A DNA stretch of 12,346 bases from the NCBI GenBank assembly GCA_040755715.1, contig JBFLXN010000014.1, forward strand, positions 1 through 12,346, written 5' to 3'. A model generated the notes under the pieces. It was not told the DNA's origin. It made no database searches and worked only from the letters and a program-made list of their open reading frames with translations. The stretch is from Candidatus Edwardsbacteria bacterium. GTDB lineage: Bacteria; Edwardsbacteria; AC1; JBFLXN01. The position numbers were made by a program, and so were the translations under genes. Positions 332-12,021 of the stretch are shown in pieces (position 1 is the stretch's first letter; each line of letters opens with the position of its first letter).

Positions 332-597
332 TATTTTCCTAATCCTTTAGCTTTTATTAAAAGTTCTGCTGTCTGTTTACGCAGGGTAGATATGGTTCTG
401 CAATTTTTACAATCCTCGTTTTTCTCATCATATTTTTCACAAGACAAAAGCATCTCCACCTCTTTCTTTAAGTGACTCGCCCTTTCGGCTTTATCAGTTA
501 CTGCCTTTGCCTCGTTGATATCGCGGGTCAATTCTTTAATGGTCCATTCCCTTTTTAGAAATATAGGGCACTTTATCTCTGGTTTTGGTTCTGCCAT
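331..597 (-). CDS. small hypothetical protein (88 aa, 4 Cys, charged and helical-looking)
   Basis: Track ORF. Its ATG at 597-595 overlaps the upstream TGA by 1 nt (TGATG), and its TAA overlaps the next ATG (TAATG), so it is translationally coupled on both sides. No family recognised. Confidence 0.55.
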   Translation of the reverse strand: MAEPKPEIKCPIFLKREWTIKELTRDINEAKAVTDKAERASHLKKEVEMLLSCEKYDEKNEDCKNCRTISTLRKQTAELLIKAKGLGK

Positions 598-1502
598 CAG
601 CGTTTAACCTCTGGGATCTGTTTTTCGCTTCCTAACTTCTGCAATCTGACCTCCAATATATTATTATGGTATCTTCTCACAATTCCTTCGCTGTCAACTT
701 TTGCTGGAAGAGAAACCTCTTCATAGTAGTTAGATTCGGGAGTTTTACAAGAGACGGTAAGTCTATCTTCATCTACCCCTAATAATATATCCTCTTCCTG
801 GGCACCTTTTAATTCCATAATGATGTTTAGATGGTCGCCTTCATCAAAGATATCCAATAACAATTCCTCTTTATCTTTTTTTAATTTATCCCCTCCGATA
901 ATCCACCAGCTAAACATAACTTTCTTTCCTGTGGATTCATCAATCTTACATCTTTGGAATACTAAAACCGGAAAACCTATCAGCTCTTGAGCCGTTGGAT
1001 TAATAATATTTCTTACCCTGTGGAGAATATCCATATGATTTGGCGCATTATAGCTGTGAGCCAATTCGTCAATGGTGGCATGTCTATTTTGCCAGACAAA
1101 AAGAAGTATATTTTGGCTCTCAGGATCTAACTCTTTGGCAATCTTATCTATTCCCTCTTGATTTATTTCCAATAGGCTTCTTTCAAATATCTTATTTTTC
1201 CACATCTCTACATCTTTTACCATAATCCAGGCCTTTGAAGCAGTTGCACCGCCTTGATTTCTATAAGAGATACAAAGGGCGTCCTTACTTCTTAATGTAA
1301 AACCCCTCTGTTGAATGCTGATTCCTTTTATATTTTCTAAGGACGTCTGGAATATAATCCTCGCCGGCTGCCAAAGAAAAAGCCTCAGGTTAGTCAGGTA
1401 CAGATGCCCTGGTTTCCAGCCGCTGCGTAGATTATCTTTGTAAAAACCCGGATCGCTTAGTATAACCTCTTCATTCGCTTTTAATTCAGGCTTATTTTTC
1501 AT
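597..1502 (-). CDS. PH/GRAM-like domain plus possible winged-helix module plus C-terminal alpha-crystallin (Hsp20) domain fusion protein
   Basis: The track ORF is 597-1598, and the codon at 1598 is TTG. The N-terminal motif GWKPGHLYLTNLRLFLWQ resembles bacterial PH/GRAM (G-x-LY-x-T-x-x-RL). The C-terminus, LLLDIFDEGDHLNIIMELKGAQEEDILLGVDEDRLTVS...VRRYHNNILEVRLQK, reads as an alpha-crystallin domain. The start is uncertain. ATG 1502 gives an 11-nt overlap with the upstream ORF. ATG 1565 is preceded by GGAAAG. TTG 1598 is the longest option. Confidence 0.8.
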   Translation of the reverse strand: MKNKPELKANEEVILSDPGFYKDNLRSGWKPGHLYLTNLRLFLWQPARIIFQTSLENIKGISIQQRGFTLRSKDALCISYRNQGGATASKAWIMVKDVEMWKNKIFERSLLEINQEGIDKIAKELDPESQNILLFVWQNRHATIDELAHSYNAPNHMDILHRVRNIINPTAQELIGFPVLVFQRCKIDESTGKKVMFSWWIIGGDKLKKDKEELLLDIFDEGDHLNIIMELKGAQEEDILLGVDEDRLTVSCKTPESNYYEEVSLPAKVDSEGIVRRYHNNILEVRLQKLGSEKQIPEVKR

Positions 1503-1767
1503 CTTTTCTGTAGTGTTTATAAGTAAAACCTGGATGTCTTGCACCACCGGGTTTGTTATCTTCATATTCTTTCCGTTTATATTTTGACCTTTTATCAAAT
1601 TCTACCCCTGTAGAATGTATTATCTGGGCATCTTCACCAGTTGAGTATTTAACCGAATATCTTCTTCTCTTTTTTGCCCACTCATCCCAGTCCATAGCTG
1701 TGGAGTGTCTCACCTTTGTGCCGCGGCCAGTAGAATACCCTGAAGTTTTAGGTGTCTTGGATTTCAT
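1492..1767 (-). CDS. small basic protein with four [HY]-S-T-[GA] repeats (hypothetical)
   Basis: ATG at 1767, preceded by AAGGGATAA (SD-like). The ORF fills what would otherwise be a ~180-nt gap in a compact operon. The motif occurs four times as GYSTG, HSTA, KYSTG and HSTG. Its codons differ mostly at wobble positions (CAT/TAC/CAC/TAT; TCT/TCA/TCC/TCT; ACA/ACT/ACA/ACT; GGG/GGT/GCT/GGC), which argues for selection at the protein level. Confidence 0.55.
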   Translation of the reverse strand: MKSKTPKTSGYSTGRGTKVRHSTAMDWDEWAKKRRRYSVKYSTGEDAQIIHSTGVEFDKRSKYKRKEYEDNKPGGARHPGFTYKHYRKDEK

Positions 1768-1782
1768 TTATCCCTTTTTTTC

Positions 1783-2355
1783 CTATTTCCATTTCCAATT
1801 ACAGGTCTTCCAATCATCAGGCACAGAAGGATGGTCTAAAATTCCTGTTTTCCCGCCTGCGTTATCAGTCTCCTTGACTACGTCCTCCTCGTCGACTTTG
1901 GGACTTTGCGGGGCAGGGGACGGAGCTTCCTCACATGGTTCATCTTGAGAGGAATCGAGGGCTTCAGCTGCTTCTTCCTCTTCTACGACCTCTTCGAAGA
2001 CTATCCCGCATTTCGGACAAACTGTTGTGTTTTCTTTTACGGCTGTGCCACAGCTCACACATTCATATCCTTCTATCTCTTCTACTTCTTTTTTGGTCTC
2101 TTCAGTGCCCATACTACCTCCAAGTTCTTTCTCGCCCTCGCCTTCGCCCTTAACCTGTTCTTCTCCCAAGGAAGTAATCCTGTATAAAGCAAACCTACCG
2201 GGCGAAAGCCTTTCTATATACCCTTTCTCCCACAATTTTTTGCATATATCATAGGCATAATTTATTGTAACCCTTAAGTTCCCGGCAATAGTTACGGTAT
2301 TTCCCTGTTTAATTTCCTTAAATTTTTCTAAAATCTTTTTCTCGTTAGGGGTCGT
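1783..2355 (-). CDS. winged-helix DNA-binding domain plus acidic linker plus zinc ribbon protein (putative regulator); non-canonical or damaged start
   Basis: The track ORF 1783-2235 begins at an internal TTG. The frame stays open upstream to the TAA at 2361-2359. That upstream part encodes the rest of a complete wHTH: TPNEKKILEKFKEIKQGNTVTIAGNLRVTINYAYDICKKLWEKGYIERLSPGRFALYRITSLGEE. A perfect SD, AAGGAGGT, lies at 2368-2361, with ACG 6 nt downstream at 2355-2353. There is no ATG, GTG or TTG between 2358 and 2236. The zinc ribbon is CVSCG-x11-CPKCG. Confidence 0.6.
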   Translation of the reverse strand, partial: TTPNEKKILEKFKEIKQGNTVTIAGNLRVTINYAYDICKKLWEKGYIERLSPGRFALYRITSLGEEQVKGEGEGEKELGGSMGTEETKKEVEEIEGYECVSCGTAVKENTTVCPKCGIVFEEVVEEEEAAEALDSSQDEPCEEAPSPAPQSPKVDEEDVVKETDNAGGKTGILDHPSVPDDWKTCNWKWK

Positions 2356-2405
2356 CTTTTACCTCCTTATGTTCTTGGTTATTATTCTATCCTTATGCCA
2401 ACATT

Positions 2406-2858
2406 TCAATATTCGATAGATACAGATTTCCACTTCTTTTCGGCTCTACTCCCTTTGCCTTGGCGCCCTACTTTTTCTTGAAGAGTAGTCAATCTATTGG
2501 GTCCACGATTACGAATTACCAACCACGACCCACGAGTAGGTCCAGATAATTTAATCTCGGCTCGAGAGTGAGGTCCGAGTTTTGTCTCCTCTAACACATC
2601 ACCTTCTAAGGTAAGCCTTCCATTTTCATCTATCCTGCCTTGACTTTCCATCATAGTAACTTCGAACTGTGAAAGGCGCGGGACCATGCTTTGCAGATGA
2701 TAAACAATCAAATATGGCCACCGCATGCTTCCTTTAATCCTTACTACTTTAATTCCCACTGGGCTTGCGAGATTTAATCCCGCTTCCCTTCGAATATTCG
2801 AAGGAATAGATAATCTACCCTCTTCATCAATTTCGCTAAATCCTTTTAACAGCGGCAT
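2406..2858 (-). CDS. tandem AbrB/SpoVT/MraZ-like (swapped-hairpin) domain protein, putative DNA-binding
   Basis: There are two copies of the D-x-x-GR-L/I signature. The first is [21 protein letters not shown] and the second is [21 protein letters not shown]. The ATG at 2858 overlaps the Hsp70 gene end by 23 nt. Confidence 0.7.
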
Positions 2859-4602
2859 CTTTTGTTTCTATCTTTAGATTTCTCTTTATCCGTTTAAACG
2901 CATTATAGACAATCTCAACCAGCTTTCTTAATTCATCAATTTTTACCCTGGTCTCTTTATATTCACCCTTGGATAAAGTTGTCTTTATTGCCAGGATTAG
3001 TTTCTCTATTTTTTCTACATCTGACCTATCTATTAGACCCTCTCCTTCTTCCAGAACCATCTCTGCTGCTTGTATCATACTTTCCGCTCGAATGCCCATT
3101 TGAATCTCTTCTTTTCGCTTTTGGTCTTCCTTGGCATGAATTCGGGCATCTTCTATCATCTCGTTAATCTGGTCCTTGGTCAGCCGGGAAGAAGAACTGA
3201 TCTGGATACTTTTTTCATTATCGGTATGTAAATCCAAGGCTCTGACTTGTAAAATCCCATTGGCATCTATATGGAATGTCACCTCAATCTGAGCTTCACC
3301 CCTTCGACCGGGTGGAATATCAGTAAGCTCAAACTTACCCAGACTTATATTATCGAAGCTCAGGAATCTCTCTCCCTGCAAGACATGGATATCGACCTGA
3401 GTCTGGTTATCTTTAGCTGTCGTAAATATCTGACTGCTGGATGTAGGAATGGTGGTATTTCTTTCTATGATCTTAGCAAATATCCCTCCCTCAGTCTCAA
3501 TTCCTAAAGAAAGGGGAGTAACGTCTAACAATACCACATCTTTTATTTCCCCAATCAAGATATTGGCTTGAATTGCTGCGCCAAGAGCCACTACCTCATC
3601 CGGATTTATATCCTTATAAGGTTCTTTGCCCAGAAGCTCTCGAGCGAGCTTTTGCACAGCAGGCATTCTGGTGGAGCCTCCTACCAAAACTACCCTGTCT
3701 ATCTGGCCGGGGTTGAGCTTTGCATCAGAAAGGACCTGTTTAGTAGGCTCTATCATCTTCTCTAATAAATCCCTGGTTAGCTCTTCAAACTGCTCTCTAC
3801 TCATAGTCAGATGCAGATCCATATCTTGTATGAGAAATGGGATTCTGATATCTGCAAACCTTTTTGTGGAAAGTTCTTTTTTTGCCTTCTCTGAAGCCTC
3901 TTTCAACCGCTGTAAAGCCACCCTATTTCTTCTTACATCCACTCCATGCAACTTCTGAAAATTATCAGCCAAATAATCCATTATCCTCTGGTCCCAATCA
4001 TCTCCGCCAAGATGTGTATTTCCCCCTACTGCCTTCACCTCAAACACGCCATTGCCCAACTCTAAAATAGATACATCGAAAGTGCCTCCACCCAAATCCC
4101 ATATTAGAATATAGTGTATATCCTGCTTGTGTAAGCCGTAGGCCAGGGAAGCAGCAGTAGGTTCATTTATAATCCGCATTACCTCTAATCCGGCTAAGGC
4201 GCCTGCCTCCATAGTCGCCTGGCGCTGGTTATCATTAAAATATGCAGGAACTGTAATTACTGCTTTCTCTATTTTCTCGCCCAAATAATCTTGCGCATCT
4301 TCCTTGACCTTACGAAGGATTAAGGCCGAAATCTCTTGGGGGGTAAATTTTCTCTCGTCAATCTCTACCCCATAATCAGTGCCCATCCGACGTTTAATAG
4401 ATGCAATGGTACGTTCTGGATTTGCAACTGCCTGGGTTCTGGCAAGATTGCCTATCAGCTGCCTCCCTCCATCGGCAAAGGCAACCACTGAAGGAGTAAG
4501 CCTTCCGCCTTCAGCATTGGGTATAATCTCAGGCCTCCCATTGTTTATAAAGGCGGCTACTGAAAAGGTAGTGCCTAAATCTATTCCTATTACCTTACTC
4601 AT
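2836..4602 (-). CDS. dnaK: Hsp70/DnaK-family chaperone paralog (588 aa)
   Basis: Hsp70 motifs present: [56 protein letters not shown] substrate-binding domain ([13 protein letters not shown]) and a helical lid are also present. The true start is the ATG at 4602-4600 ([12 protein letters not shown]), in an ATGA overlap with the upstream stop. The 34-aa extension in the track lies inside the upstream gene. Confidence 0.93.
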
Positions 4603-5672
4603 TTGGCTACCTGGGCTATTTTCTTCTTTAACCGTGGGCTGACCCAGCCGCAGTTTACGCAACCCTTTTCTAATAGCTCTAAGGCGTTTGCCTTTTTTCC
4701 GCATTGAGGGCAGGCTTCTGTTCTTTCTCTAAATGATATGATTCGGGTAAGCGCCCTCTCCCACTCATACATTCCCTCTCCTGAAAAAGAGGCAACCTTT
4801 CTTTGAGAACCACCTTCACCCAGCCCTTGCGCGCAAGAGCTGGGTTCATATATTACGTCAAAGACCTTTTTCTTCTTTAATACCGGGCTCAAATTCCTTA
4901 CATCTATAGCAGAACCTAATATCTTTTCTGAAGGGACTTCAAAAGCCAATCTCTTTTCAAAATCATACCACCAGCATAATCTCTTATTTGTTATATACAG
5001 ATGACCGGGCTTCCAGATACCATCTGATGAGGCCATATGCCAGGCCTTGCCCTTGTGAGTAATCGTTTCTCCTTCTGTCAGGAAATCTAATGTCTCTTCC
5101 TCATATTCGGGTAGAATAAGGTTTTCATCAATTATAAGTCCGCCTAACTTTATCGCCTCTTTTATAGACTCACCTAATTTATCTATCTCCACAGACCGCA
5201 GACGCGCTAATCTATCATCCTTAAGAATAAGTAAGAGCGTATCTTCTTGTATCAAGAGCCCCTTTATCTCATCTAAAGAGGTTTGAAACATCACTTCATT
5301 AAGCTCTTGATTCATGAGCAGCAGTCTTTTATCAGTTAAATAAATCTGCCCCGGTCTCCAACTAACATAGATTCCTTTGGCATAAAAAAAAGAGCCCAAC
5401 ATCTTAAGTTTAAGCTCTTCTCCCTGGATTAAAGAAATCTCTTTTTTAGCTCTATTATCTTTTTCCCAGGCGCGAATCTTCTCATCCCATGCCTTCATCA
5501 TGCCATACTCGAGCATAGTCTCCATGCCGGCCAGGGCGGCTCTTAAATTAACACCGATTAAAGGGATGCCCGCCACAGAGATGATAATGTCAGCGTTGAT
5601 CACCAACCCCTTATCCAGGACCCTATCCAATAAATCAACCAATGTGACCCGTGCATCTCTGGTTGGCTCCAT
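4599..5672 (-). CDS. GvpA/J/M-family (GvpM-like) N-terminal domain fused to two PH/GRAM-like domains and a C-terminal zinc ribbon
   Basis: The N-terminus [49 protein letters not shown] matches the gas-vesicle structural core (LxxVxDRxLDKGxV...). Two PH-like motifs follow, [15 protein letters not shown] and [16 protein letters not shown]. The C-terminus is [25 protein letters not shown]. The ATG at 5672 is preceded by AAGGAG. Confidence 0.85.
4815..4848. repeat. second copy of the 26-bp palindrome (one mismatch), flanked by direct ttca, inside the GvpM-like fusion CDS
   Basis: cccagcccttgcgcgcaagagctggg lies at 4819-4844, with ttca at 4815-4818 and 4845-4848. Element plus one flank is 30 nt, or 10 codons, so it is in frame. 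It encodes [10 protein letters not shown]. Confidence 0.7.
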
Positions 5673-5691
5673 ATGTCGCTTCGCTCCTTTA

Positions 5692-5733
5692 TCAGAATTC
5701 AGAAGTCAGATTTTTCTATCCTCTGTCCTCTGT
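5692..5733. promoter_or_regulatory. two sets of tandem heptamers in the 85-nt gap upstream of the GvpM-like fusion gene
   Basis: TCAGA occurs at 5692, 5699 and 5706, with a 7-bp period. cctctgt occurs twice in tandem at 5720-5733. Confidence 0.25.
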
Positions 5734-5757
5734 TACCTGTTTTTCTATGCTTTGGCT

Positions 5758-6522
5758 TTAGGCGAATGAGTATGGTGGCCAGGGGCCTGTAAATCGAACG
5801 ATCAACCCATTTTCTTTTTTAATCTTTTCTAAAACTTCGCCAAGCCTTTTGACATTTTCCTTAGCAACCAAACAGGATAAGTTCATGATCATCTGTAAGT
5901 TCTCATCTACTTTTTTAGCCTTATCTATATGAATATCAAAAACTTCTTTCTTTATCCGAGCATAAAAGTCCTTAAAATATTCATCGGCCTTTTTTCCCAT
6001 CTCTTTCCTTAATAGATTCTTTATCTTCTCTTCATACATATAGGCTGTGCCCGGTGGTTTAGACTTCAACTCCTCTTTCAAATTCTTAATCTCTGGGCTA
6101 TCTTCGGCTATTCTTTCAACCATAACCTTGGGATCCCATAAAATCTGGACTCCATATTCTTCTTTGCCCTTGACTTTATTTAATCTTTCTTTTAGATTCT
6201 GGTAATCTTTTTGCAGCCACTTTTTCATATTTTCTTTCGGGTCTATGCCTTCTTCGCCAATAATTATGGTATCAAATGCCAGAGGCAGGACAGTACCAAA
6301 CCTCTGCCAGGCATAATCCACTACCTTCTGGTGAGTCATTACCCAACCTTTTACAATATCTTTATCTTCTGATTCGTAGGGGTGAGGTTCACAGTTGTGA
6401 ACAACGGCTGAAATTTCCTGGTATGGAAGAGTGTAAACGTTGCTCCCATCAATTCCAATCTCACCCAGGCTTACCTTTTCGTTGCCATCAGCTATGCAGT
6501 AGAGATATATACCGTCGTTCAC
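5758..6522 (-). CDS. gvpF: gas vesicle protein GvpF/GvpL family
   Basis: N-terminus GIYLYCIADG, then VLPLAFDT, then C-terminal FTGPWPPYSFA, which together are typical of GvpF/L. The preferred start is the GTG at 6522-6520. It forms a GTGA overlap with the gvpK stop and is preceded by AAGGAGA with an 8-nt spacer. The track's ATG at 6549 lacks an SD and overlaps gvpK by 31 nt. Confidence 0.88.
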   Translation of the reverse strand: MNDGIYLYCIADGNEKVSLGEIGIDGSNVYTLPYQEISAVVHNCEPHPYESEDKDIVKGWVMTHQKVVDYAWQRFGTVLPLAFDTIIIGEEGIDPKENMKKWLQKDYQNLKERLNKVKGKEEYGVQILWDPKVMVERIAEDSPEIKNLKEELKSKPPGTAYMYEEKIKNLLRKEMGKKADEYFKDFYARIKKEVFDIHIDKAKKVDENLQMIMNLSCLVAKENVKRLGEVLEKIKKENGLIVRFTGPWPPYSFA

Positions 6523-6836
6523 TTGGCTGTCTCCTTTATTTTTTCCCATCTCGTGGGATTAGCTATTTTATCTATAACATCGTTGACTATATTATCTAAA
6601 CCATCTCTCACTGATTGAACTGCCTCACCAACCCCTTGTTCCTCTTTTATATGCTCTATTGCGACGTCGAGTTCCTTAAGCGCTCTACCCAGACGTTCTA
6701 TCTCTTCTTCGTTTAGGCTTCCACCCTCCATTCGCTTTACCGCCTGAAGTTTAAGGGCATCTCTGATTATTTCAACCAAGGCAAGCACAAGGCCTAAAAC
6801 ACCGCTTTTAAGATTATCTTCATTGATATCTATCAT
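6519..6836 (-). CDS. gvpK: gas vesicle protein GvpK
   Basis: GLVLALVEIIRDALKLQAVKRMEGGSLNEEEIERLGRAL matches the GvpK core as I remember it. The ATG forms an ATGA overlap with the upstream stop. Confidence 0.88.
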   Translation of the reverse strand: MIDINEDNLKSGVLGLVLALVEIIRDALKLQAVKRMEGGSLNEEEIERLGRALKELDVAIEHIKEEQGVGEAVQSVRDGLDNIVNDVIDKIANPTRWEKIKETAK

Positions 6837-7420
6837 TTTTCTATTTTTACTTCTAAAATCCCATTCTTGTATGTTTTTTCTAGTTTTCCTTTAGATTCGC
6901 AGGGTAGTTTTAATTGCTGATGGTACTTGCGATCAGGAATATCTACTGATATTGCAAGGCTGTCTTTGACTAAATCAATTTTTATATCCTTTTCTTCAAT
7001 GCCTGGTATTTCAGCAATCACTTTAATATGATCTTCCTCATCAAAGATATCCGCTGGCCGCTCTTGAGGTGTTGGAGGGGGTGAGGGTTTTACTTCTGGT
7101 CTCTGTTTAGCAAAAGGTTTTCCTCTAAAGGCCCTTCCTCTTATGCCCGGAGGGATGCCGCCGGGGATACCCGAAGGCCTTCCTTCAGCTCTTTTCAAAG
7201 GGGCTTCTTTTATCTTACGCTCCACCTCTTTATCAACCTCCTTAAGCCTCTCTTTGAAAGCCGGGGATTTCTCCAGGCCTTTAATTAATCCCCCTAATCC
7301 GGGAATTACCTTGCCCAGACCTTTAAGTATTCCTCCTGCTACACTTTCAGATTCTTTTTCTCCCGCCTCGGGCGGGACATCCTCTGGTCGCTTTTTGTCT
7401 TTATCTTCTTTACCGGTCAT
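6833..7420 (-). CDS. Hsp20/alpha-crystallin domain protein with a long Gly/Pro-rich N-terminal region
   Basis: The C-terminus reads as an alpha-crystallin domain: DIFDEEDHIKVIAEIPGIEEKDIKIDLVKDSLAISVD...LEKTYKNGILEVKIEK. The N-terminal region carries G-rich repeats (GGILKGLGKVIPGLGGLIKGLEK, GIPGGIPPGIRG). The ATG at 7420 is preceded by AAAGGTG. Confidence 0.85.
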   Translation of the reverse strand: MTGKEDKDKKRPEDVPPEAGEKESESVAGGILKGLGKVIPGLGGLIKGLEKSPAFKERLKEVDKEVERKIKEAPLKRAEGRPSGIPGGIPPGIRGRAFRGKPFAKQRPEVKPSPPPTPQERPADIFDEEDHIKVIAEIPGIEEKDIKIDLVKDSLAISVDIPDRKYHQQLKLPCESKGKLEKTYKNGILEVKIEK

Positions 7421-7468
7421 ATTCTACACCTTTCTTTAGCTTTACTTGTTAAGCTGCTAGCTTATTTC

Positions 7469-7819
7469 TCATTCTGCCTTTATATCTTTTGCCTTGGCGC
7501 TTACCCAGCCACACCAGGGACAGCCCTCATCAAGTAATTCTTCTGCCAGAACTTTTTTGCCGCACTGTGGACAAAGTTCTTTACCCTTCATGGCTTCTTT
7601 CCAGGCTTCTGTTTCCACATTAGTCCCTGATGGAAACTCAAGGCCATACTTTGCTGCTGTCTCAAAAGAAGCCAGGGCTGCCCTTATCTTAATTCCCAAA
7701 AGCTCTACTCCGGCAACAGATATGGCGATATCCGCATTAATCACCAGGCCTTTGTCTAAAACCCGGTCTATGACATCAACCAAAGTAACACTTGCATCTT
7801 TTGTCGCTTCTATTGCCAT
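7469..7819 (-). CDS. gvpJ: gas vesicle structural protein, GvpA/J/M family (GvpJ-like), with a C-terminal zinc ribbon
   Basis: [53 protein letters not shown] is the gas-vesicle core, and it looks J-like from memory of the haloarchaeal GvpJ sequence. The C-terminus is CPQCGKKVLAEELLDEGCPWCGWVS. The ATG at 7819 is preceded by AAGGAGG with an 8-nt spacer. Confidence 0.88.
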   Translation of the reverse strand: MAIEATKDASVTLVDVIDRVLDKGLVINADIAISVAGVELLGIKIRAALASFETAAKYGLEFPSGTNVETEAWKEAMKGKELCPQCGKKVLAEELLDEGCPWCGWVSAKAKDIKAE

Positions 7820-7832
7820 TTCTATTGCCTCC

Positions 7833-8225
7833 TTACCCCGCTACTACACCTTGGCCTTTACATTTGGGGCAAGCCACTGGATGAGGTTTGCGCGGATATA
7901 CCCCACTTCCATTGCAAGTGGTGCATTTTTTAGAAGGTGTCATCCTTGTAACCACCCCTACCCCACCACAGGCTAAACAGTGTATGCGACTTGTAGTATA
8001 TGGGTCTATTCCCTTGCCACCACAAAAATTGCATTTCATTGTCGGGCCAATAATTCTCACCTTACCTTTTCCTAAACACACCTGGCAATCAGAAAGCTTA
8101 GATAAAAGCTGAAAAGGATCTTTTCCTATTCCATTACAAAAGGCGCATATAACTTCCACTTTATTTTTTTCTATTCGCCTAAGCTCCTCAGGTGCAATCG
8201 TAGCCCATTTTGGTTTTTTAGCCAT
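7833..8225 (-). CDS. DnaJ-type cysteine-rich zinc-finger protein with six CxxCxGxG repeats and no J domain
   Basis: Six repeats: CAFCNGIG, CQVCLGKG, CNFCGGKG, CLACGGVG, CTTCNGSG, CPKCKGQG. No HPD motif is present. The ATG at 8225 is preceded by GAGGAGGTG. Confidence 0.85.
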   Translation of the reverse strand: MAKKPKWATIAPEELRRIEKNKVEVICAFCNGIGKDPFQLLSKLSDCQVCLGKGKVRIIGPTMKCNFCGGKGIDPYTTSRIHCLACGGVGVVTRMTPSKKCTTCNGSGVYPRKPHPVACPKCKGQGVVAG

Positions 8226-8262
8226 CTTTCACCTCCTCACCTTCGGCTGGTCGGGGTTAGCA

Positions 8263-8320
8263 GTTATTAGTTATAAGTTATGTATTTTTAACTGATAACT
8301 TATAACCCGTAATCCATAAC
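8263..8320. promoter_or_regulatory. inverted arrays of GTTAT/ATAAC half-sites with 7-bp phasing (operator-like); includes a 12-bp perfect inverted repeat and a candidate promoter
   Basis: gttat occurs at 8263, 8270 and 8277; ataac occurs at 8295, 8302 and 8316. The perfect inverted repeat is gttataagttat (8270-8281) paired with ataacttataac (8295-8306), with a 13-nt loop. On the minus strand, TTATCA (8298-8293), a 17-nt spacer and TATAAC (8275-8270) resemble -35 and -10 boxes. The site lies in the 100-nt gap upstream of the zinc-finger gene. Confidence 0.35.
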
Positions 8321-8325
8321 TTTTT

Positions 8326-8901
8326 TTACCTTCTCTTCTTCTTGGGTTTCCCTTTGGTCTCTTTAGTCTTCTCCTTTATCTCTTCTTTTTCCTCCAAATC
8401 TTTTATGCGCTTCTTAAGTTCTGCCTCTTTTGTCTTAAAATCATCCCCAGTTATTTCAGCTCTCTCAAAACGCATTTTAAGCTCGAGGATTTCTTCTTCT
8501 AAGGCGACCTTAGGGTCTTTTTCTTCTTCAGCCTGCGCTCCCACTGCGGCAGTGATTCCTTTGACCATCTCTACTGGTTGATATGGCGCTGAAATTAGCT
8601 TACCCAAGAATCTAAATAACCCTATATCCTTTGGCCGTTCCAACTTGCGCCTTCTAATGGCTGGTACATTAGATATTCCCCATTTCTTAGTTGGCATCAT
8701 ACCCCAATATTTGGGAATAGTAATATTGGGTTTAGCGCTTACTAGGGGAATAGGTTTAGAAACCAAGGGAATCTCTTTACTAACCAGCGGAATAGCGCTT
8801 GCTACTTGGGGCATAGCCTTACTAACCGATGGTAAGCTACCCGCAGTAAAAGGAATGAATTTGGCTTCTTTCTTGTTAGATTTTTTCTTTTTGGGAGACA
8901 T
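8326..8901 (-). CDS. GvpG-like protein with an N-terminal [ILM]P-x-V-[SA]-K heptad-repeat extension and a Lys-rich tail
   Basis: The C-terminal half, LFRFLGKLISAPYQPVEMVKGITAAVGAQAEEE...LEEEILELKMRFERAEITGDDFKTKEAELKKRIKDLEE, parallels the canonical GvpG at 11444-11728. Compare LELKMRFERAEI here with LELQMRFEMGEV there. The N-terminal repeats are LPSVSKA, MPQVASA, IPLVSKE, IPLVSKP and IPLVSAKP. Confidence 0.78.
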   Translation of the reverse strand: MSPKKKKSNKKEAKFIPFTAGSLPSVSKAMPQVASAIPLVSKEIPLVSKPIPLVSAKPNITIPKYWGMMPTKKWGISNVPAIRRRKLERPKDIGLFRFLGKLISAPYQPVEMVKGITAAVGAQAEEEKDPKVALEEEILELKMRFERAEITGDDFKTKEAELKKRIKDLEEKEEIKEKTKETKGKPKKKRR

Positions 8902-8930: not shown

Positions 8931-10895
8931 TTATCCATATATTTCCTTAGAAAAATCCTTTAATCGGTCAATACCTTTGATCTGATAAGGGAAAAGCGGC
9001 AGCTGACCAATTTGATATTGCGAAGACCTTTCCCTCTCTATTTCCTGGATAATCTTAATCTGCTCACCTCTTTTTGACTCGCAAAAATTACATCTAGTTT
9101 TCGGAAGAATCATATTAACCAGAATATAATGAGAGGGGATGTTAAGTCGCTTAAGGTTCTCAAGGAGGCCGTCCATCTCACTCTTGCCCATAGCCTCTGG
9201 AATACCTACAACCACAAATTGACACCTCGCCGGATCTGTGAGAATCTCCTGTATTTTTCTCACCTTCTTAGAAAACTCTATCATCTCTTCAGCCTGTTTG
9301 GCCAATCGTACTATCCCCTTATATTTTATAAGTAATTTAAATATTGCATTTAGCCACTCCCTGGCAACCTGAGGCATCTCTAGAAACCGCAATAGGTGTC
9401 CTGTAGCTGCTGAATCTAAGATATATATATCAAATTTTCCTCCATCTATAAATTCCACCACCTTAGCTAAAGCCATAATCTCATCCAAACCGGGAGGAGT
9501 AAGTGAGATAAGTTCCTCTAAAATCTCCCTATCGAACTTAACATCCACTCCACCTCCGATAAATTTACTAAATACCTCGCTTATTTGGTCTTTATAATCC
9601 TTTTTAAAATTCTCAAGCAACTTCAAAGCATCTATCTCCAGGGCAAATAGATTATTGGGGACAGTCTCCTTCGGGGACAGTCCCCCTATCTGAGTGAGAT
9701 TATCTCCAATAGATAGACCAAAACTATCGGATAGCGAATGGGCAGGGTCGGTAGAAAAGACTAAGACTTTTTTAGAGGGGTATTTTTTGGCCATACTAAG
9801 TGCAGTGGCTGAAGCTATGGATGTTTTACCCACCCCACCTTTTCCCCCAAATATATATAATATAATGCCTTTCTCTATTAATTGAGGCAATTTAATAATA
9901 GAGAAAATCTTAGACTTGAAATCAAAAGGTTTCTTTCCAATGGGAAGGCGATGTGGCTTCTCTTCAAATAAAACCTGGGCATATTCCTTTAGTCGATCCA
10001 TCCCTCTGATTTGATATGGAAATATCGGTATCTGATGAAGTTCGAGATTTGCGAATTTTTGCCTGATTATATCTAATTCTTTCTTTTGTTCTTTCTCTTC
10101 CTTAGAACAAAAGGGACACCTGTTTTGACTACTTTTAATTTGATTGACGATAATAGATTTCACTGAAATTCCATATCCTTTTAATATCGCCAACAACCTT
10201 TCTGTCTCTTCTATAGCCAAGGTCTCGGGTTTAGTGACAGGTATAAATTCTGTTGAATCGCGGTTCTTTAGTAACCGACTTACTCTATCCACGTCGCTTT
10301 TCACCATCTCTAAAAATTCATCAGCGTCGTCTTTTTTGTATTTGCCAGCAAAATGGCTGGCTAAAAATCTATGCTTAGATTGCATCAAATCTAAAACTTC
10401 GACCCACTTTTTCATCTGAAGGGGTAAACCTAAAAGCCTTATGGTATGTCCTGTAGGTGCGGTGTCCAAGATGATTAAATCGTATTTCTCTTCTCTTAAG
10501 ATATTAGCTATTTTTATAACCGCCATTATCTCATCTAACCCTGGAATAGAAAGGGAAAAGAAATTCTCTATATCTTGCCTGTCGAAATAAGTTCCTCTCT
10601 CAACGATCTTTTTCATCACCAAATCATATTTCTTTTTAAAAAGAGAGGCCTCTTCCTCAGCTTTTATTTCTAAAGCCCAAAGATTGTTTAAATCTTTTAT
10701 GGGTGTAATGGTATTACCAACAGTATAGCCCAAACTATCACCCACTGAATGAGCAGGGTCACAGGATACAATCAAAATCCTCTGCTTGGGATAATGTTGG
10801 GCTAAATAAAGGCCAGTAGCAGTCGCTGATGTAGTTTTTCCGCAACCCCCCTTTCCACCAAAGATTATTAGACGCCGCTTCTCGCTGATTTTCAT
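8931..10895 (-). CDS. tandem-fused ArsA/Get3 (TRC40)-family ATPase (654 aa, two homologous halves)
   Basis: Half 1 has GGKGGCGKTT, CDPAHSVGDSLG, DTAPTGHTIRLLGLP and a CPFC motif. Half 2 has GGKGGVGKTS, TDPAHSLSDSFG, DSAATGHLLRFLEMP and a CNFC motif. Each half ends in a matching tail: IPIFPYQIRGMDRLKEY in half 1 and LPLFPYQIKGIDRLKDF in half 2. ATG at 10895. Confidence 0.92.
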   Translation of the reverse strand: MKISEKRRLIIFGGKGGCGKTTSATATGLYLAQHYPKQRILIVSCDPAHSVGDSLGYTVGNTITPIKDLNNLWALEIKAEEEASLFKKKYDLVMKKIVERGTYFDRQDIENFFSLSIPGLDEIMAVIKIANILREEKYDLIILDTAPTGHTIRLLGLPLQMKKWVEVLDLMQSKHRFLASHFAGKYKKDDADEFLEMVKSDVDRVSRLLKNRDSTEFIPVTKPETLAIEETERLLAILKGYGISVKSIIVNQIKSSQNRCPFCSKEEKEQKKELDIIRQKFANLELHQIPIFPYQIRGMDRLKEYAQVLFEEKPHRLPIGKKPFDFKSKIFSIIKLPQLIEKGIILYIFGGKGGVGKTSIASATALSMAKKYPSKKVLVFSTDPAHSLSDSFGLSIGDNLTQIGGLSPKETVPNNLFALEIDALKLLENFKKDYKDQISEVFSKFIGGGVDVKFDREILEELISLTPPGLDEIMALAKVVEFIDGGKFDIYILDSAATGHLLRFLEMPQVAREWLNAIFKLLIKYKGIVRLAKQAEEMIEFSKKVRKIQEILTDPARCQFVVVGIPEAMGKSEMDGLLENLKRLNIPSHYILVNMILPKTRCNFCESKRGEQIKIIQEIERERSSQYQIGQLPLFPYQIKGIDRLKDFSKEIYG

Positions 10896-11232: not shown

Positions 11233-11439
11233 TTATAGTTTCCTTTTAATCTTAGCCCCACAGGAAGGGCAGAATGCATAACCATAAATATACCGCCACC
11301 TTGCCCCACATTCCTGACATTCGATATTTAAGGGTTCTCCGCATTCTGAACAAAACCGCAGATTCCCCCAGGTTACACTTCCGCATCGAGGGCACCTAAA
11401 TGCACCTTTTGGTAGTGCTGGTTCTATTCTTTCTTCCAC
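11233..11439 (-). CDS. double zinc-ribbon protein (68 aa)
   Basis: Four CxxC pairs: CPRCG, CSECG, CQECG, CPSCG. The GTG start at 11439 is preceded by GGAGGTG with a 5-nt spacer. Confidence 0.72.
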   Translation of the reverse strand: MEERIEPALPKGAFRCPRCGSVTWGNLRFCSECGEPLNIECQECGARWRYIYGYAFCPSCGAKIKRKL

Positions 11440-11443
11440 ATTC

Positions 11444-11728
11444 TCACCTCCTCTCCTCTTTGTATTTCCTGATTGCCTCTAATCTTTCCAGGATTTTTCC
11501 TTCTTTCTTTTTATATTCCTCTTCGTTCACCTCGCCCATCTCAAAGCGCATCTGAAGTTCTAGCAACTCTTCCTGCACTTTAGACTCATCGGTCACCTCA
11601 GTCTCGGCTGTCTCCTTTAGTTTATTTCCGATCCATACCACCCCCTTTATAGGCAACAAAAAAGGCAATAAAATATCGGTTAATCCAAAACCCGATCCTT
11701 TAGAACCACTCTCAGGCTTTTCCTTCAC
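11444..11728 (-). CDS. gvpG: gas vesicle protein GvpG
   Basis: LTDILLPFLLPIKGVVWIGNKLKETAETEVTDESKVQEELLELQMRFEMGEVNEEEYKKKEGKILERLEAIRK fits the GvpG pattern. The present start is the GTG at 11728-11726, in a GTGA overlap created by the inserted element. See the findings for details. Confidence 0.85.
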   Translation of the reverse strand: MKEKPESGSKGSGFGLTDILLPFLLPIKGVVWIGNKLKETAETEVTDESKVQEELLELQMRFEMGEVNEEEYKKKEGKILERLEAIRKYKEERR

Positions 11729-12020
11729 CCCGCCCTTCCTTTCCTTGCAATGCCAAGTCTAGATTTTAATCTTGCCAAACCACTTCCGAACTTCTTCAAG
11801 CTTTTTTCCCTTTCAAATGCCACATCTTTAGATCTATAGGCCTCAAAATATATTAACTCCACTGGTAACATCTTTCTAGTTGAATATATCTTTCCTTGCT
11901 TATGCTCCATTAACCTTTTTTTCAAGTTATTCGTACATCCTATATAAATCCAGTCTTTAACTTTACTACTGAGTAAATATATATAATGCCAATTAGGCTT
12001 TTTAGGAAGGGCGGGGTTCA
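11724..12020 (-). mobile_element. putative miniature autonomous element: TTCA | 12-bp TIR | GIY-YIG ORF | 12-bp TIR | TTCA
   Basis: The plus strand has ccccgcccttcc at 11728-11739 and its perfect reverse complement ggaagggcgggg at 12005-12016. Direct ttca copies flank these at 11724-11727 and 12017-12020. The ORF start (xTG) and stop (TGA) both fall within the flanking TGAA copies. Confidence 0.5.
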
Positions 12021-12021
12021 C
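11725..12021 (-). CDS. small GIY-YIG nuclease family protein (98 aa)
   Basis: WHYIYLLSSKVKDWIYIGCTNNLKKRLMEHKQG...ELIYFEAY...AFEREKSLKK carries the GIY/YIG motifs, the conserved Arg, the Glu and the RE-x-x-x-K signature. Start is the GTG at 12021 and stop is the TGA at 11727-11725. The ORF is bounded by 12-bp inverted repeats. Confidence 0.85.
   Translation of the reverse strand: MNPALPKKPNWHYIYLLSSKVKDWIYIGCTNNLKKRLMEHKQGKIYSTRKMLPVELIYFEAYRSKDVAFEREKSLKKFGSGLARLKSRLGIARKGRAG

Follow-up and report, generated by a model that had tools for sequence, protein, structure and literature searches.

The stretch of DNA analysed here (the window) comprises 12,346 nucleotides (nt) of contig JBFLXN010000014.1 from a Candidatus Edwardsbacteria bacterium (assembly GCA_040755715.1). 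It carries a gas vesicle gene for a 357-amino-acid (AA) protein, hereafter the fusion, in which a GvpM-type core is followed by two PH-like domains and a predicted zinc ribbon. Judged from sequence and gene position, the fusion is a GvpM orthologue enlarged by accretion of modules, and its architecture is that of a large conserved family, not a rarity of this genome. We consider it reasonably probable that the protein is a seeding or assembly factor whose cytoplasmic extension acts as a docking hub.

Domain architecture and predicted fold of the fusion protein

The open reading frame (ORF) of the fusion runs on the minus strand from an ATG at 5672-5670 to a TGA stop at 4601-4599 and comprises 357 codons without interruption. 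An earlier reading of the window, made from its letters and ORFs (the sequence-only reading), had placed the gene correctly at 4599-5672 with its strand unstated, and all the peptides quoted in it are present in the translation. The gene and its parts, with the evidence for each in brackets, are as follows; MAG stands for metagenome-assembled genome and AF2 for AlphaFold2.

5684-5690, minus strand: Shine-Dalgarno sequence AAAGGAG, 11 nt before the fusion ATG (read directly)
4599-5672, minus strand: fusion gene, 357-AA GvpM-PH-PH-zinc-ribbon protein (ORF list; identical protein in a MAG; gene call on the identical public contig L001)
5502-5672, minus strand: A-J-M family core (predicted alpha1-beta1-beta2-alpha2), GvpM-type, residues 1-57 (PF00741, NCBIfam, AF2)
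5433-5501, minus strand: basic helix joining the core to PH1, residues 58-80, MMxxWDxxxRxWE (alignment; AF2 helix 58-76)
5139-5432, minus strand: PH-like domain 1 (PH1), residues 81-178, with seven strands at 87-160 and a C-terminal helix at 163-176
5073-5138, minus strand: acidic low-confidence linker, residues 179-200 (AF2; net charge -8 here, family mean -5)
4722-5072, minus strand: PH-like domain 2 (PH2), residues 201-317, with strands at 204-298 and a helix at 301-316 (AF2; GRAM/GLUE in relatives)
4602-4721, minus strand: predicted Cys4 zinc ribbon and basic tail, residues 318-357, with Cys codons at 4650-4712 (alignment, GvpJ comparison)

The gas-vesicle-family domain proposed for the N-terminus was borne out by Pfam PF00741 (Gas_vesicle), which matched residues 10-48 over the full model (1-39) with 62.4 bits (cut-off 25; E 4.5e-17) and was found in all 61 relatives. 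A profile of the 61-member family aligned to residues ~6-58 of the solved GvpA/GvpB chains 8gbs (E 1.6e-10) and 7r1c (E 1.7e-8); the fusion has the sequence RAALA and not the canonical GvpA signature. The AF2 model of the fusion was built on the 61-sequence family alignment, and its secondary structure in the core (helix 11-21, strands 31-33 and 36-38, helix 43-55) has the element order of solved GvpA, in a monomer model with a predicted local distance difference test score (pLDDT) of 35-55. In the helix that leads from the core to PH1, W62, D63 and R67 are invariant in the alignment.

For the region behind this helix, AF2 predicted two modules (residues 87-176 and 204-316), each of seven strands and a helix, with pLDDT mostly 73-90; they are separated by the disordered, acidic linker, and PH2 has a variable low-confidence loop at residues 280-288. 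A Foldseek search of the PDB gave 155 matches at E<=1e-3, with tandem-PH proteins on top: BBS5 (E 7e-9), FARP1 PH-PH, Dok7 PH-PTB and the double-PH protein Spt16 (Spt16M). The nearest folds include the lipid-binding PH/GRAM domains of TAPP1, MTMR2 and Lam6. Sequence models were less decisive on the fusion itself, which stayed below the Pfam gathering scores for GRAM (PF02893; 18.1 vs. 23.6 bits, E 0.0024) and Vps36 GLUE (PF11605; 16.4 vs. 24.1 bits). At E<=0.01, GRAM was matched by 57 and GLUE by 58 of the 61 relatives, the best of them at E 3.9e-8 and E 2.8e-9, respectively. The two PH/GRAM-like domains of the sequence-only reading are thus upheld by predicted beta-sandwich modules, by double-PH proteins in the fold search and by GRAM/GLUE matches in most relatives, and the outcome that would have spoken against them, a model without a PH-like beta-sandwich, did not occur.

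The GRAM, GLUE and BBS5 PH-like families (PF02893, PF11605, PF07289) and the bacterial bPH_3 (PF14470) consist, as the fusion domains do, of a seven-stranded sandwich and a helix, and the motif W-x-G-x-h-Y-h-T-x-x-R-h is common to the fusion PH domains and the GRAM/GLUE type. Unlike in GRAM/GLUE proteins, the PH domains of the fusion are attached to a gas vesicle core. PH1 is about neutral and PH2 mildly basic in net charge, with a wide spread in the family and no conserved polybasic signature. Conservation of the PH/ribbon region is strong, with a mean column identity of 54% and Trp, Gly, Arg and Cys positions that are invariant across phyla.

The C-terminal Cys4 module is a zinc ribbon by prediction from its sequence. 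Its cysteines C321, C324, C338 and C341 are invariant in 61 sequences, AF2 gave strands at 318-320 and 327-329, and Pfam zinc-ribbon models matched the fusion below threshold only. A Cys4 ribbon had been recognised in the sequence-only reading, but its spacing of CxxC-x14-CxxC has to be corrected to CPQC-x13-CVNC, as 13 residues lie between C324 and C338.

The fusion occupies the gvpM slot of a conserved gene order

Against the NCBIfam models the core scored 97 bits with halo_gas_GvpM (1-67/67), which is below the curated cut-off of 109 set for haloarchaeal proteins, 55.8 bits with GvpJ and 41 bits with GvpA. The RAAIA/EYGL motifs [RAA[IL]A, (E/K)YG] have been reported to be specific to GvpJ and GvpM (PMC8716928), and the fusion carries RAALA at residues 44-48 and EYGM at 55-58, with R44, A45, A46 and A48 invariant or nearly so in the family. 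The strongest evidence for GvpM identity is positional. The neighbouring genes used in this and the following sections are listed below.

7469-7819, minus strand: GvpJ-type paralogue, 116 AA, with the Cys4 ribbon CPQCGKK...GCPWCGW (NCBIfam halo_gas_GvpJ 98 bits; BLASTP)
6833-7420, minus strand: hsp20-like gene (Pfam HSP20)
6519-6836, minus strand: gvpK (Pfam GvpK)
5758-6549, minus strand: gvpF/L (Pfam GvpL_GvpF)
2836-4602, minus strand: hsp70/dnaK-like gene, 588 AA from MSKVIG (NCBIfam DnaK 792 bits; gene call on L001)
597-1565, minus strand: PH-bearing small heat-shock protein (PH-sHsp) with PH-like, helical winged-helix-like and alpha-crystallin domains (BLASTP, hhalign, AF2, Foldseek)

The order gvpJ-(hsp20-like)-gvpK-gvpF/L-fusion of the window is conserved across loci, with GvpF/L as the upstream neighbour of the fusion in 36 of 61, and it is colinear with the haloarchaeal operon order gvpJKLM (PMC6107691). 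The slot after gvpK-gvpF/L is held in sister clusters by smaller proteins: a plain 85-AA GvpM with an 'AGMETML.YGMM..WD' sequence (L101, 15890-16147), a short GvpM followed by hsp70 (L163, 16327-16743), a 237-AA protein of GvpM, PH1 and ribbon (L139, 19700-20413) and a 264-AA protein of GvpM, PH2 and ribbon (L083). The helix start 'GMMxxWD' is common to the fusion and to the plain short proteins of L101 and L163. It is because the same slot holds plain, one-PH and two-PH forms of GvpM that we assign the fusion as a GvpM orthologue, even though at 357 AA it is far larger than GvpM proteins of about 80-100 AA.

The 9.2-kDa GvpM of Halobacterium salinarum has, like the fusion, an N-terminal core with RAA[IL]A and (E/K)YG, predicted in the fusion to be alpha-beta-beta-alpha, and stands last in a J-K-L-M series; the C-terminal part of the haloarchaeal protein serves the binding of GvpF, GvpH and GvpJ (PMC6107691). 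The fusion is four times longer, its tail being replaced or extended by the two PH-like domains and the ribbon, and its clusters differ from that of H. salinarum in being bacterial, anaerobe-associated and equipped with Hsp70, ArsA and CDC48-type ATPases. GvpJ and GvpS (Bacillus megaterium pNL29, Halobacterium) belong to the same family as the fusion and have a proposed role in early assembly and at the bicone tips, but the fusion scored 56 bits with the GvpJ model vs. 97 bits with GvpM, and known GvpJ/GvpS are without folded extra domains.

The family is widespread in anaerobic lineages

An identical protein (P0001), annotated as 'gas vesicle protein', is present in a Candidatus Edwardsbacteria MAG. 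The best 120 database matches were nearly all full-length (345-400 AA, 49-80% identity), with five shorter forms or fragments among them. A scan of one genome per prokaryotic species returned 375 loci with a relative, and in each of the 80 kept for analysis the full architecture, or a contig-truncated part of it, was found inside a gvp cluster (39-98% identity). The architecture that the sequence-only reading had proposed to look for in other genomes is therefore that of a large conserved family, and the ORF cannot be put down to chance.

Carriers span about 15 bacterial phyla and archaea. They include Nitrospirota, Omnitrophota-like lineages, Actinomycetota, Atribacterota, Bacteroidales, Chloroflexota, Desulfobacterota, Planctomycetota (Ca. 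Scalindua rubra), Verrucomicrobiota, Ignavibacteria, Acidobacteria, Aminicenantes and Bacillota, as well as two archaeal MAGs, one of ANME-1 Methanophagales and one of a Methanomicrobia archaeon. Isolates among them are Marinisporobacter balticus DSM 102940, Desulfosporosinus fructosivorans and Anaerobacterium chartisolvens DSM 27016. Frameshifted copies of the fusion are exceptional (L050, L070). A single-sequence phmmer search with the PH-PH-ribbon region against 1.84 billion representatives gave only 122 matches, almost all of them Gvp fusions or fragments, and in nearly all the matching region starts at residue ~70-90 of the protein, behind a Gvp core. This search was too insensitive to find the PH-sHsp, for which profile-profile comparison was needed.

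Members of the family stand in public databases under generic names. Desulfosporosinus cupriresistens forms gas vesicles in sporulating cells, and D. fructosivorans is said to have an identical gvp cluster (PMC12739157); its locus (L065) carries the fusion. The genes are listed there only as gvpJ or 'pfam00741', and the extension is unmentioned (PMC12739157). In the literature open to full-text search we found no description of this architecture, nor one of a zinc-ribbon-bearing GvpJ or GvpM. What is new is apparently a GvpM with PH-like domains and a ribbon; the protein family, the organelle and the generically named relatives were already known.

PH domains and ribbons recur on other proteins of the cluster

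The modules of the fusion are shared with its neighbours. Its ribbon is 65% identical over 31 AA (BLASTP) to the C-terminal ribbon of the neighbouring GvpJ. Such a ribbon is present on GvpJ in 62 of 62 loci and, by a motif test, on the fusion in 53 of the 62 loci in which GvpJ was seen; the clusters also encode standalone proteins that bear one ribbon of this type or two.

The PH type recurs on the PH-sHsp, whose longest ORF covers 597-1598 (333 codons), with homologues and the L001 gene call suggesting a start near 1565. Its N-terminal domain, a homologue of PH1 and PH2, is 38% identical to PH1 (BLASTP), and profile-profile comparison (hhalign) gave a probability of 98.7%. AF2 placed a PH domain at residues 45-141, a helical domain at 147-233 and an alpha-crystallin domain at 248-321; Foldseek confirmed the alpha-crystallin domain and gave no name to the middle one, which may be called winged-helix-like from its AF2 secondary structure and its resemblance to small helix-turn-helix-like cluster proteins. 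Proteins of this family (about 300-322 AA) are annotated only as 'Hsp20'. In Bacteroidales and Atribacterota they have two PH domains, and in Firmicutes two small genes encode the PH and the middle domain separately, the PH gene lying directly upstream of the fusion. Among the 39 loci in which the fusion is flanked by 5 kb or more on either side, another PH-bearing protein was present in 35. From co-occurrence and homology the PH-sHsp is a probable partner or co-targeted protein of the fusion. GvpH/Hsp20-type chaperones are not homologues of the fusion and are a likely partner class: genes for small heat-shock proteins flank it, one of them with the same PH type.

It is possible, though we hold it to be doubtful, that PH domain and CPxCG...GCxxCGW ribbon form a cluster-wide docking code that assembles a dedicated chaperone machine around the vesicle seed. 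Such a machine, equally tentative, would comprise the small heat-shock protein, Hsp70 with a J-domain-fused GvpF/L, Get3/ArsA-like ATPases and a CDC48-like unfoldase.

The main shell protein is encoded elsewhere in the cluster

Canonical gvpA (67-77 AA, about 100-115 bits to Anabaena GvpA) was found within 10 kb of the fusion in 12 of 80 loci, often in several copies, and in four extended loci of about 27-35 kb only two family genes were seen, namely the ribbon-bearing gvpJ (GvpJ-Zn) and the fusion. A metagenome scan anchored on the GvpN-like AAA5 ATPase located the head of the supercluster. There, canonical gvpA (67-74 AA) is the first gene of a supercluster of roughly 25-30 kb (L092, L093, L096, L139, L166 and others), which rules out that the fusion or GvpJ-Zn is the sole shell protein. 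The gvpA gene of sister clusters precedes the fusion by about 16 kb; next to it there is usually a gene for a small DnaJ-type zinc-finger protein and then one for a GvpN-like ATPase. The full order after gvpA is DnaJ-type zinc-finger protein, GvpN-like ATPases, CDC48-like ATPase, GvpF/L proteins (one with a J-domain), GvpG, GvpO, ArsA and the J-K-L-M block; the window stops short of the gvpA region. As canonical GvpA is encoded separately, the fusion is presumably an accessory protein, and a role as the main shell protein is unlikely on the evidence of the genes.

Proposed function and alternative explanations

In haloarchaea GvpJ and GvpM are essential (PMC6107691, PMC8716928). Haloarchaeal GvpM aggregates alone and is kept soluble by GvpH, which binds its C-terminal part (PMC6107691); GvpF and GvpJ have contacts to this part as well, and the N-terminus is bound by GvpL (PMC6107691, PMC8716928). 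In Bacillus megaterium, GvpS, GvpK and GvpJ have been proposed as seeding factors at the bicone tips (PMC11445434), and a cryo-electron microscopy study proposed GvpA homologues as nucleation factors (PMC9994262).

We propose that the fusion would be a GvpM-type accessory protein of a large chaperone-rich gvp cluster of a type found widely among anaerobic bacteria and in some archaea. On the model of GvpM, GvpJ and GvpS elsewhere, its first ~57 residues, a predicted hydrophobic alpha-beta-beta-alpha unit, would join the shell seed together with GvpJ, GvpK and GvpF/L, and not the bulk of the shell, for which a canonical 70-AA GvpA would be supplied by a separate gene at the cluster start. The 290-residue extension would project into the cytoplasm: it is unable to face the gas space and so must lie on the cytoplasmic side, and its bulk makes dense self-polymerisation unlikely. 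Sub-stoichiometric use of the protein would be expected. The PH domains and the ribbon may act as protein-protein interaction modules holding the seeding complex together; the ribbon that both have would tie GvpM to GvpJ, the common PH domain would tie it to the PH-sHsp or to standalone PH proteins, and holdase chaperones could thereby be brought to the aggregation-prone GvpM. In this way the extension would enlarge the partner-docking job of the short C-terminal tail of haloarchaeal GvpM. The sequence-only reading had offered a tether or a nucleation/adaptor subunit; given the GvpM-type core, nucleation/adaptor is the better suggestion for the putative function of the fusion.

We think it unlikely that the extension is a built-in solubility tag which, without partners, keeps the hydrophobic GvpM core soluble and sterically caps its self-polymerisation. 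GvpM does aggregate on its own (PMC6107691), some Gvp proteins tolerate fused proteins (PMC11445434), and the existence of plain, one-PH and two-PH versions suggests that the number of modules is tolerated as well. A passive tag, however, is at odds with the strong cross-phylum conservation of PH domains and ribbon and their invariant positions, and would leave unexplained why GvpJ, the small heat-shock protein and standalone cluster proteins have these modules too.

A shell-decorating subunit, which would co-polymerise with GvpA and present the PH domains as an outer coat for stiffening or binding display, thus doing the job of GvpC, seems to us slightly less probable again. The core does align across the whole alpha-beta-beta-alpha region of solved GvpA, an outward C-terminus as deduced from the GvpA structure (PMC9994262) would put the PH domains on the surface, and in the clusters examined no repeat protein resembling GvpC was noticed, for which no specific search was made. 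Yet the core is M-type and not A-type, canonical gvpA is present, often in several copies, and sister clusters have a plain 85-AA GvpM in the same slot. Furthermore, an appendage of ~33 kDa on every subunit would not be expected to fit the tight GvpA rib lattice, and GvpJ, GvpM and GvpS are minor or absent in mature vesicles (PMC9994262, PMC11445434).

That lipid binding by the PH/GRAM-like domains attaches vesicles, as nuclei or when finished, to the cytoplasmic membrane (or, in sporulating Firmicutes, to that of the forespore) we rate as improbable. The lipid-binding folds named above would agree with such a membrane tether, as would the gas vesicles that surround spores in Desulfosporosinus and relatives (PMC12739157). 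Against it stand the lack of a conserved polybasic surface signal in the PH domains and the many PH-like domains (GLUE, TFIIH p62, pICln, BBS5, PTB) that bind proteins. The fusion of the same PH type to a holdase chaperone is a better fit to protein targeting, and gas vesicles are lipid-free. Lastly, an artefact, be it a chimeric assembly or separate genes joined by a frameshift, has a negligible probability and is ruled out. Only the length of the ORF, unusual for the family, would speak for it, and full-length homologues, an ORF intact in at least 80 independent genomes, isolates included, and an identical protein on an independent contig all contradict this possibility, which the sequence-only reading had allowed for.

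Several points weigh against the seeding/docking explanation, in addition to the GvpM score below its cut-off. The AF2 model is moderate (mean pLDDT 71, predicted template-modelling score 0.40) with a poorly modelled Gvp core, and so does not fix the arrangement of the domains. The ribbon seems dispensable in some lineages, as its motif test was negative in 9 of 62 fusions; about six of these look like real losses, and the others are frameshifted copies or have a long tail past the ribbon. The assignment of partners draws on co-occurrence and homology, and PH-like domains often bind lipids or small ligands. The literature is split on whether GvpJ and GvpM are retained in mature vesicles (PMC9994262, PMC6107691, PMC11445434). 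Finally, the link to Hsp70 is not general: hsp70 lies within 10 kb of the fusion in only 35 of 79 loci, and in loci other than those with the overlap described below the two genes are spaced by 50-228 nt or have genes inserted between them.

Relation of the fusion gene to hsp70

In the window the two genes meet in an ATGA, in which the fusion ends (GCC AAA TGA) and hsp70 starts (ATG AGT AAG; M S K V I G I D). The stop/start overlap noted in the sequence-only reading is therefore real, and the 4-nt overlap was reproduced by an independent gene call on the identical public contig (L001). It was seen in this genome and in L085. In the wider comparison hsp70 was immediately downstream of the fusion in 17 of 62 loci and beyond a gap of >1 kb in ~10 more, and the Firmicutes clusters, like many other fusion carriers, are without a cluster hsp70. 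Adjacency in 17 of 62 loci, the gaps and the Firmicutes clusters rule out obligatory Hsp70 coupling as a general feature; for the same reasons the proposed co-translation with Hsp70 at a fixed ratio does not hold generally, and the ATGA overlap is local operon packing and not part of the mechanism. A promoter and terminator scan of positions 2300-8400 gave nothing above chance and no minus-strand terminator, which weakly suggests that the genes of the fusion region are co-transcribed.

Three of the gaps of >1 kb between fusion and hsp70 were read, and a histidine-kinase/response-regulator pair lies inside each. In these loci, of Desulfobacterales type (L020, L024, L030), a sensor-less histidine-kinase core and a response regulator with an N-terminal GYF-like domain stand between the two genes. 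Gaps of similar size occur in L022, L025, L028, L031, L032, L039 and L052. The insertion hints at phospho-regulated assembly or expression.

Other genes of the cluster

A chaperone-type gene set was observed in the window at 7833-8225 and 8931-10895 (minus strand) and in L002 and L084-L087. It consists of a DnaJ-type CXXCXGXG zinc-finger protein without a J-domain and a two-domain ArsA/Get3-like ATPase, to which related loci add a GvpF/L fused to a J-domain, a CDC48-like double-AAA ATPase and two GvpN-like AAA5 ATPases. ArsA homologues have been tied to gvp clusters since 2010 (PMC2963123).

At 1492-1767 (minus strand) a 91-AA ORF with repeated (K/R)(Y/H)STG motifs (MK..YSTGRGTKVRHSTAMDWDE...KYSTG...HSTG) shares part of its length with the PH-sHsp gene in the longest-ORF form of the latter; 10 more gvp loci have it conserved, e.g. 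L077, L036, L006, L004 and L047. A 150-AA AbrB/MraZ-like protein is encoded at 2406-2858 (minus strand), its start overlapping the end of hsp70 by 23 nt. Homologues stand after hsp70 in related loci and were found in 14 of 84 sequences searched, and the upstream half of the supercluster has a 56-AA AbrB-like gene behind its first GvpN-like ATPase (L084, L087, L092).

Small (60-110 AA) winged-helix-like and zinc-ribbon proteins are scattered through the clusters (L084, 5991-6790; L085, 1601-2428; several in L086). The window has an ORF at 1783-2235 (minus strand) with a winged-helix-like end, a rubredoxin-like ribbon and an acidic tail, and another at 11233-11439 (minus strand) with a double zinc ribbon. 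A 98-AA GIY-YIG endonuclease-like ORF at 11725-12021 (minus strand), with weak matches to group I intron endonuclease and UvrC, separates gvpG from a gvpF/L gene. Since these two genes adjoin in the closest relative, L004, it looks like a mobile insertion inside the cluster.

Implications for gas vesicle assembly

Initiation is the least understood step of vesicle assembly, and its prime suspects, GvpJ, GvpM and GvpS, are tiny, hydrophobic and hard to locate (PMC9994262, PMC11445434). That a folded appendage of ~33 kDa is tolerated on the C-terminus of GvpM argues for a cytoplasm-exposed end and for sparing use of the protein. The extension is in effect a built-in mass label, which might be located by cryo-electron tomography or used in pull-downs and so help to define the seed complex, and the shared modules give concrete interaction candidates, PH domains with the PH-sHsp and ribbon with ribbon. 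The series of plain, one-PH and two-PH forms in one slot would be useful for dissecting the contribution of each module, and for engineered acoustic reporter vesicles GvpM is suggested as an attachment site for functional modules. Current annotation ('gas vesicle protein', 'GvpJ') conceals this multi-domain architecture across many anaerobic phyla. If the tentative docking code were true, these anaerobes would nucleate their gas vesicles by a modular process with active chaperoning, in which a naturally 'tagged' GvpM marks the site of nucleation.

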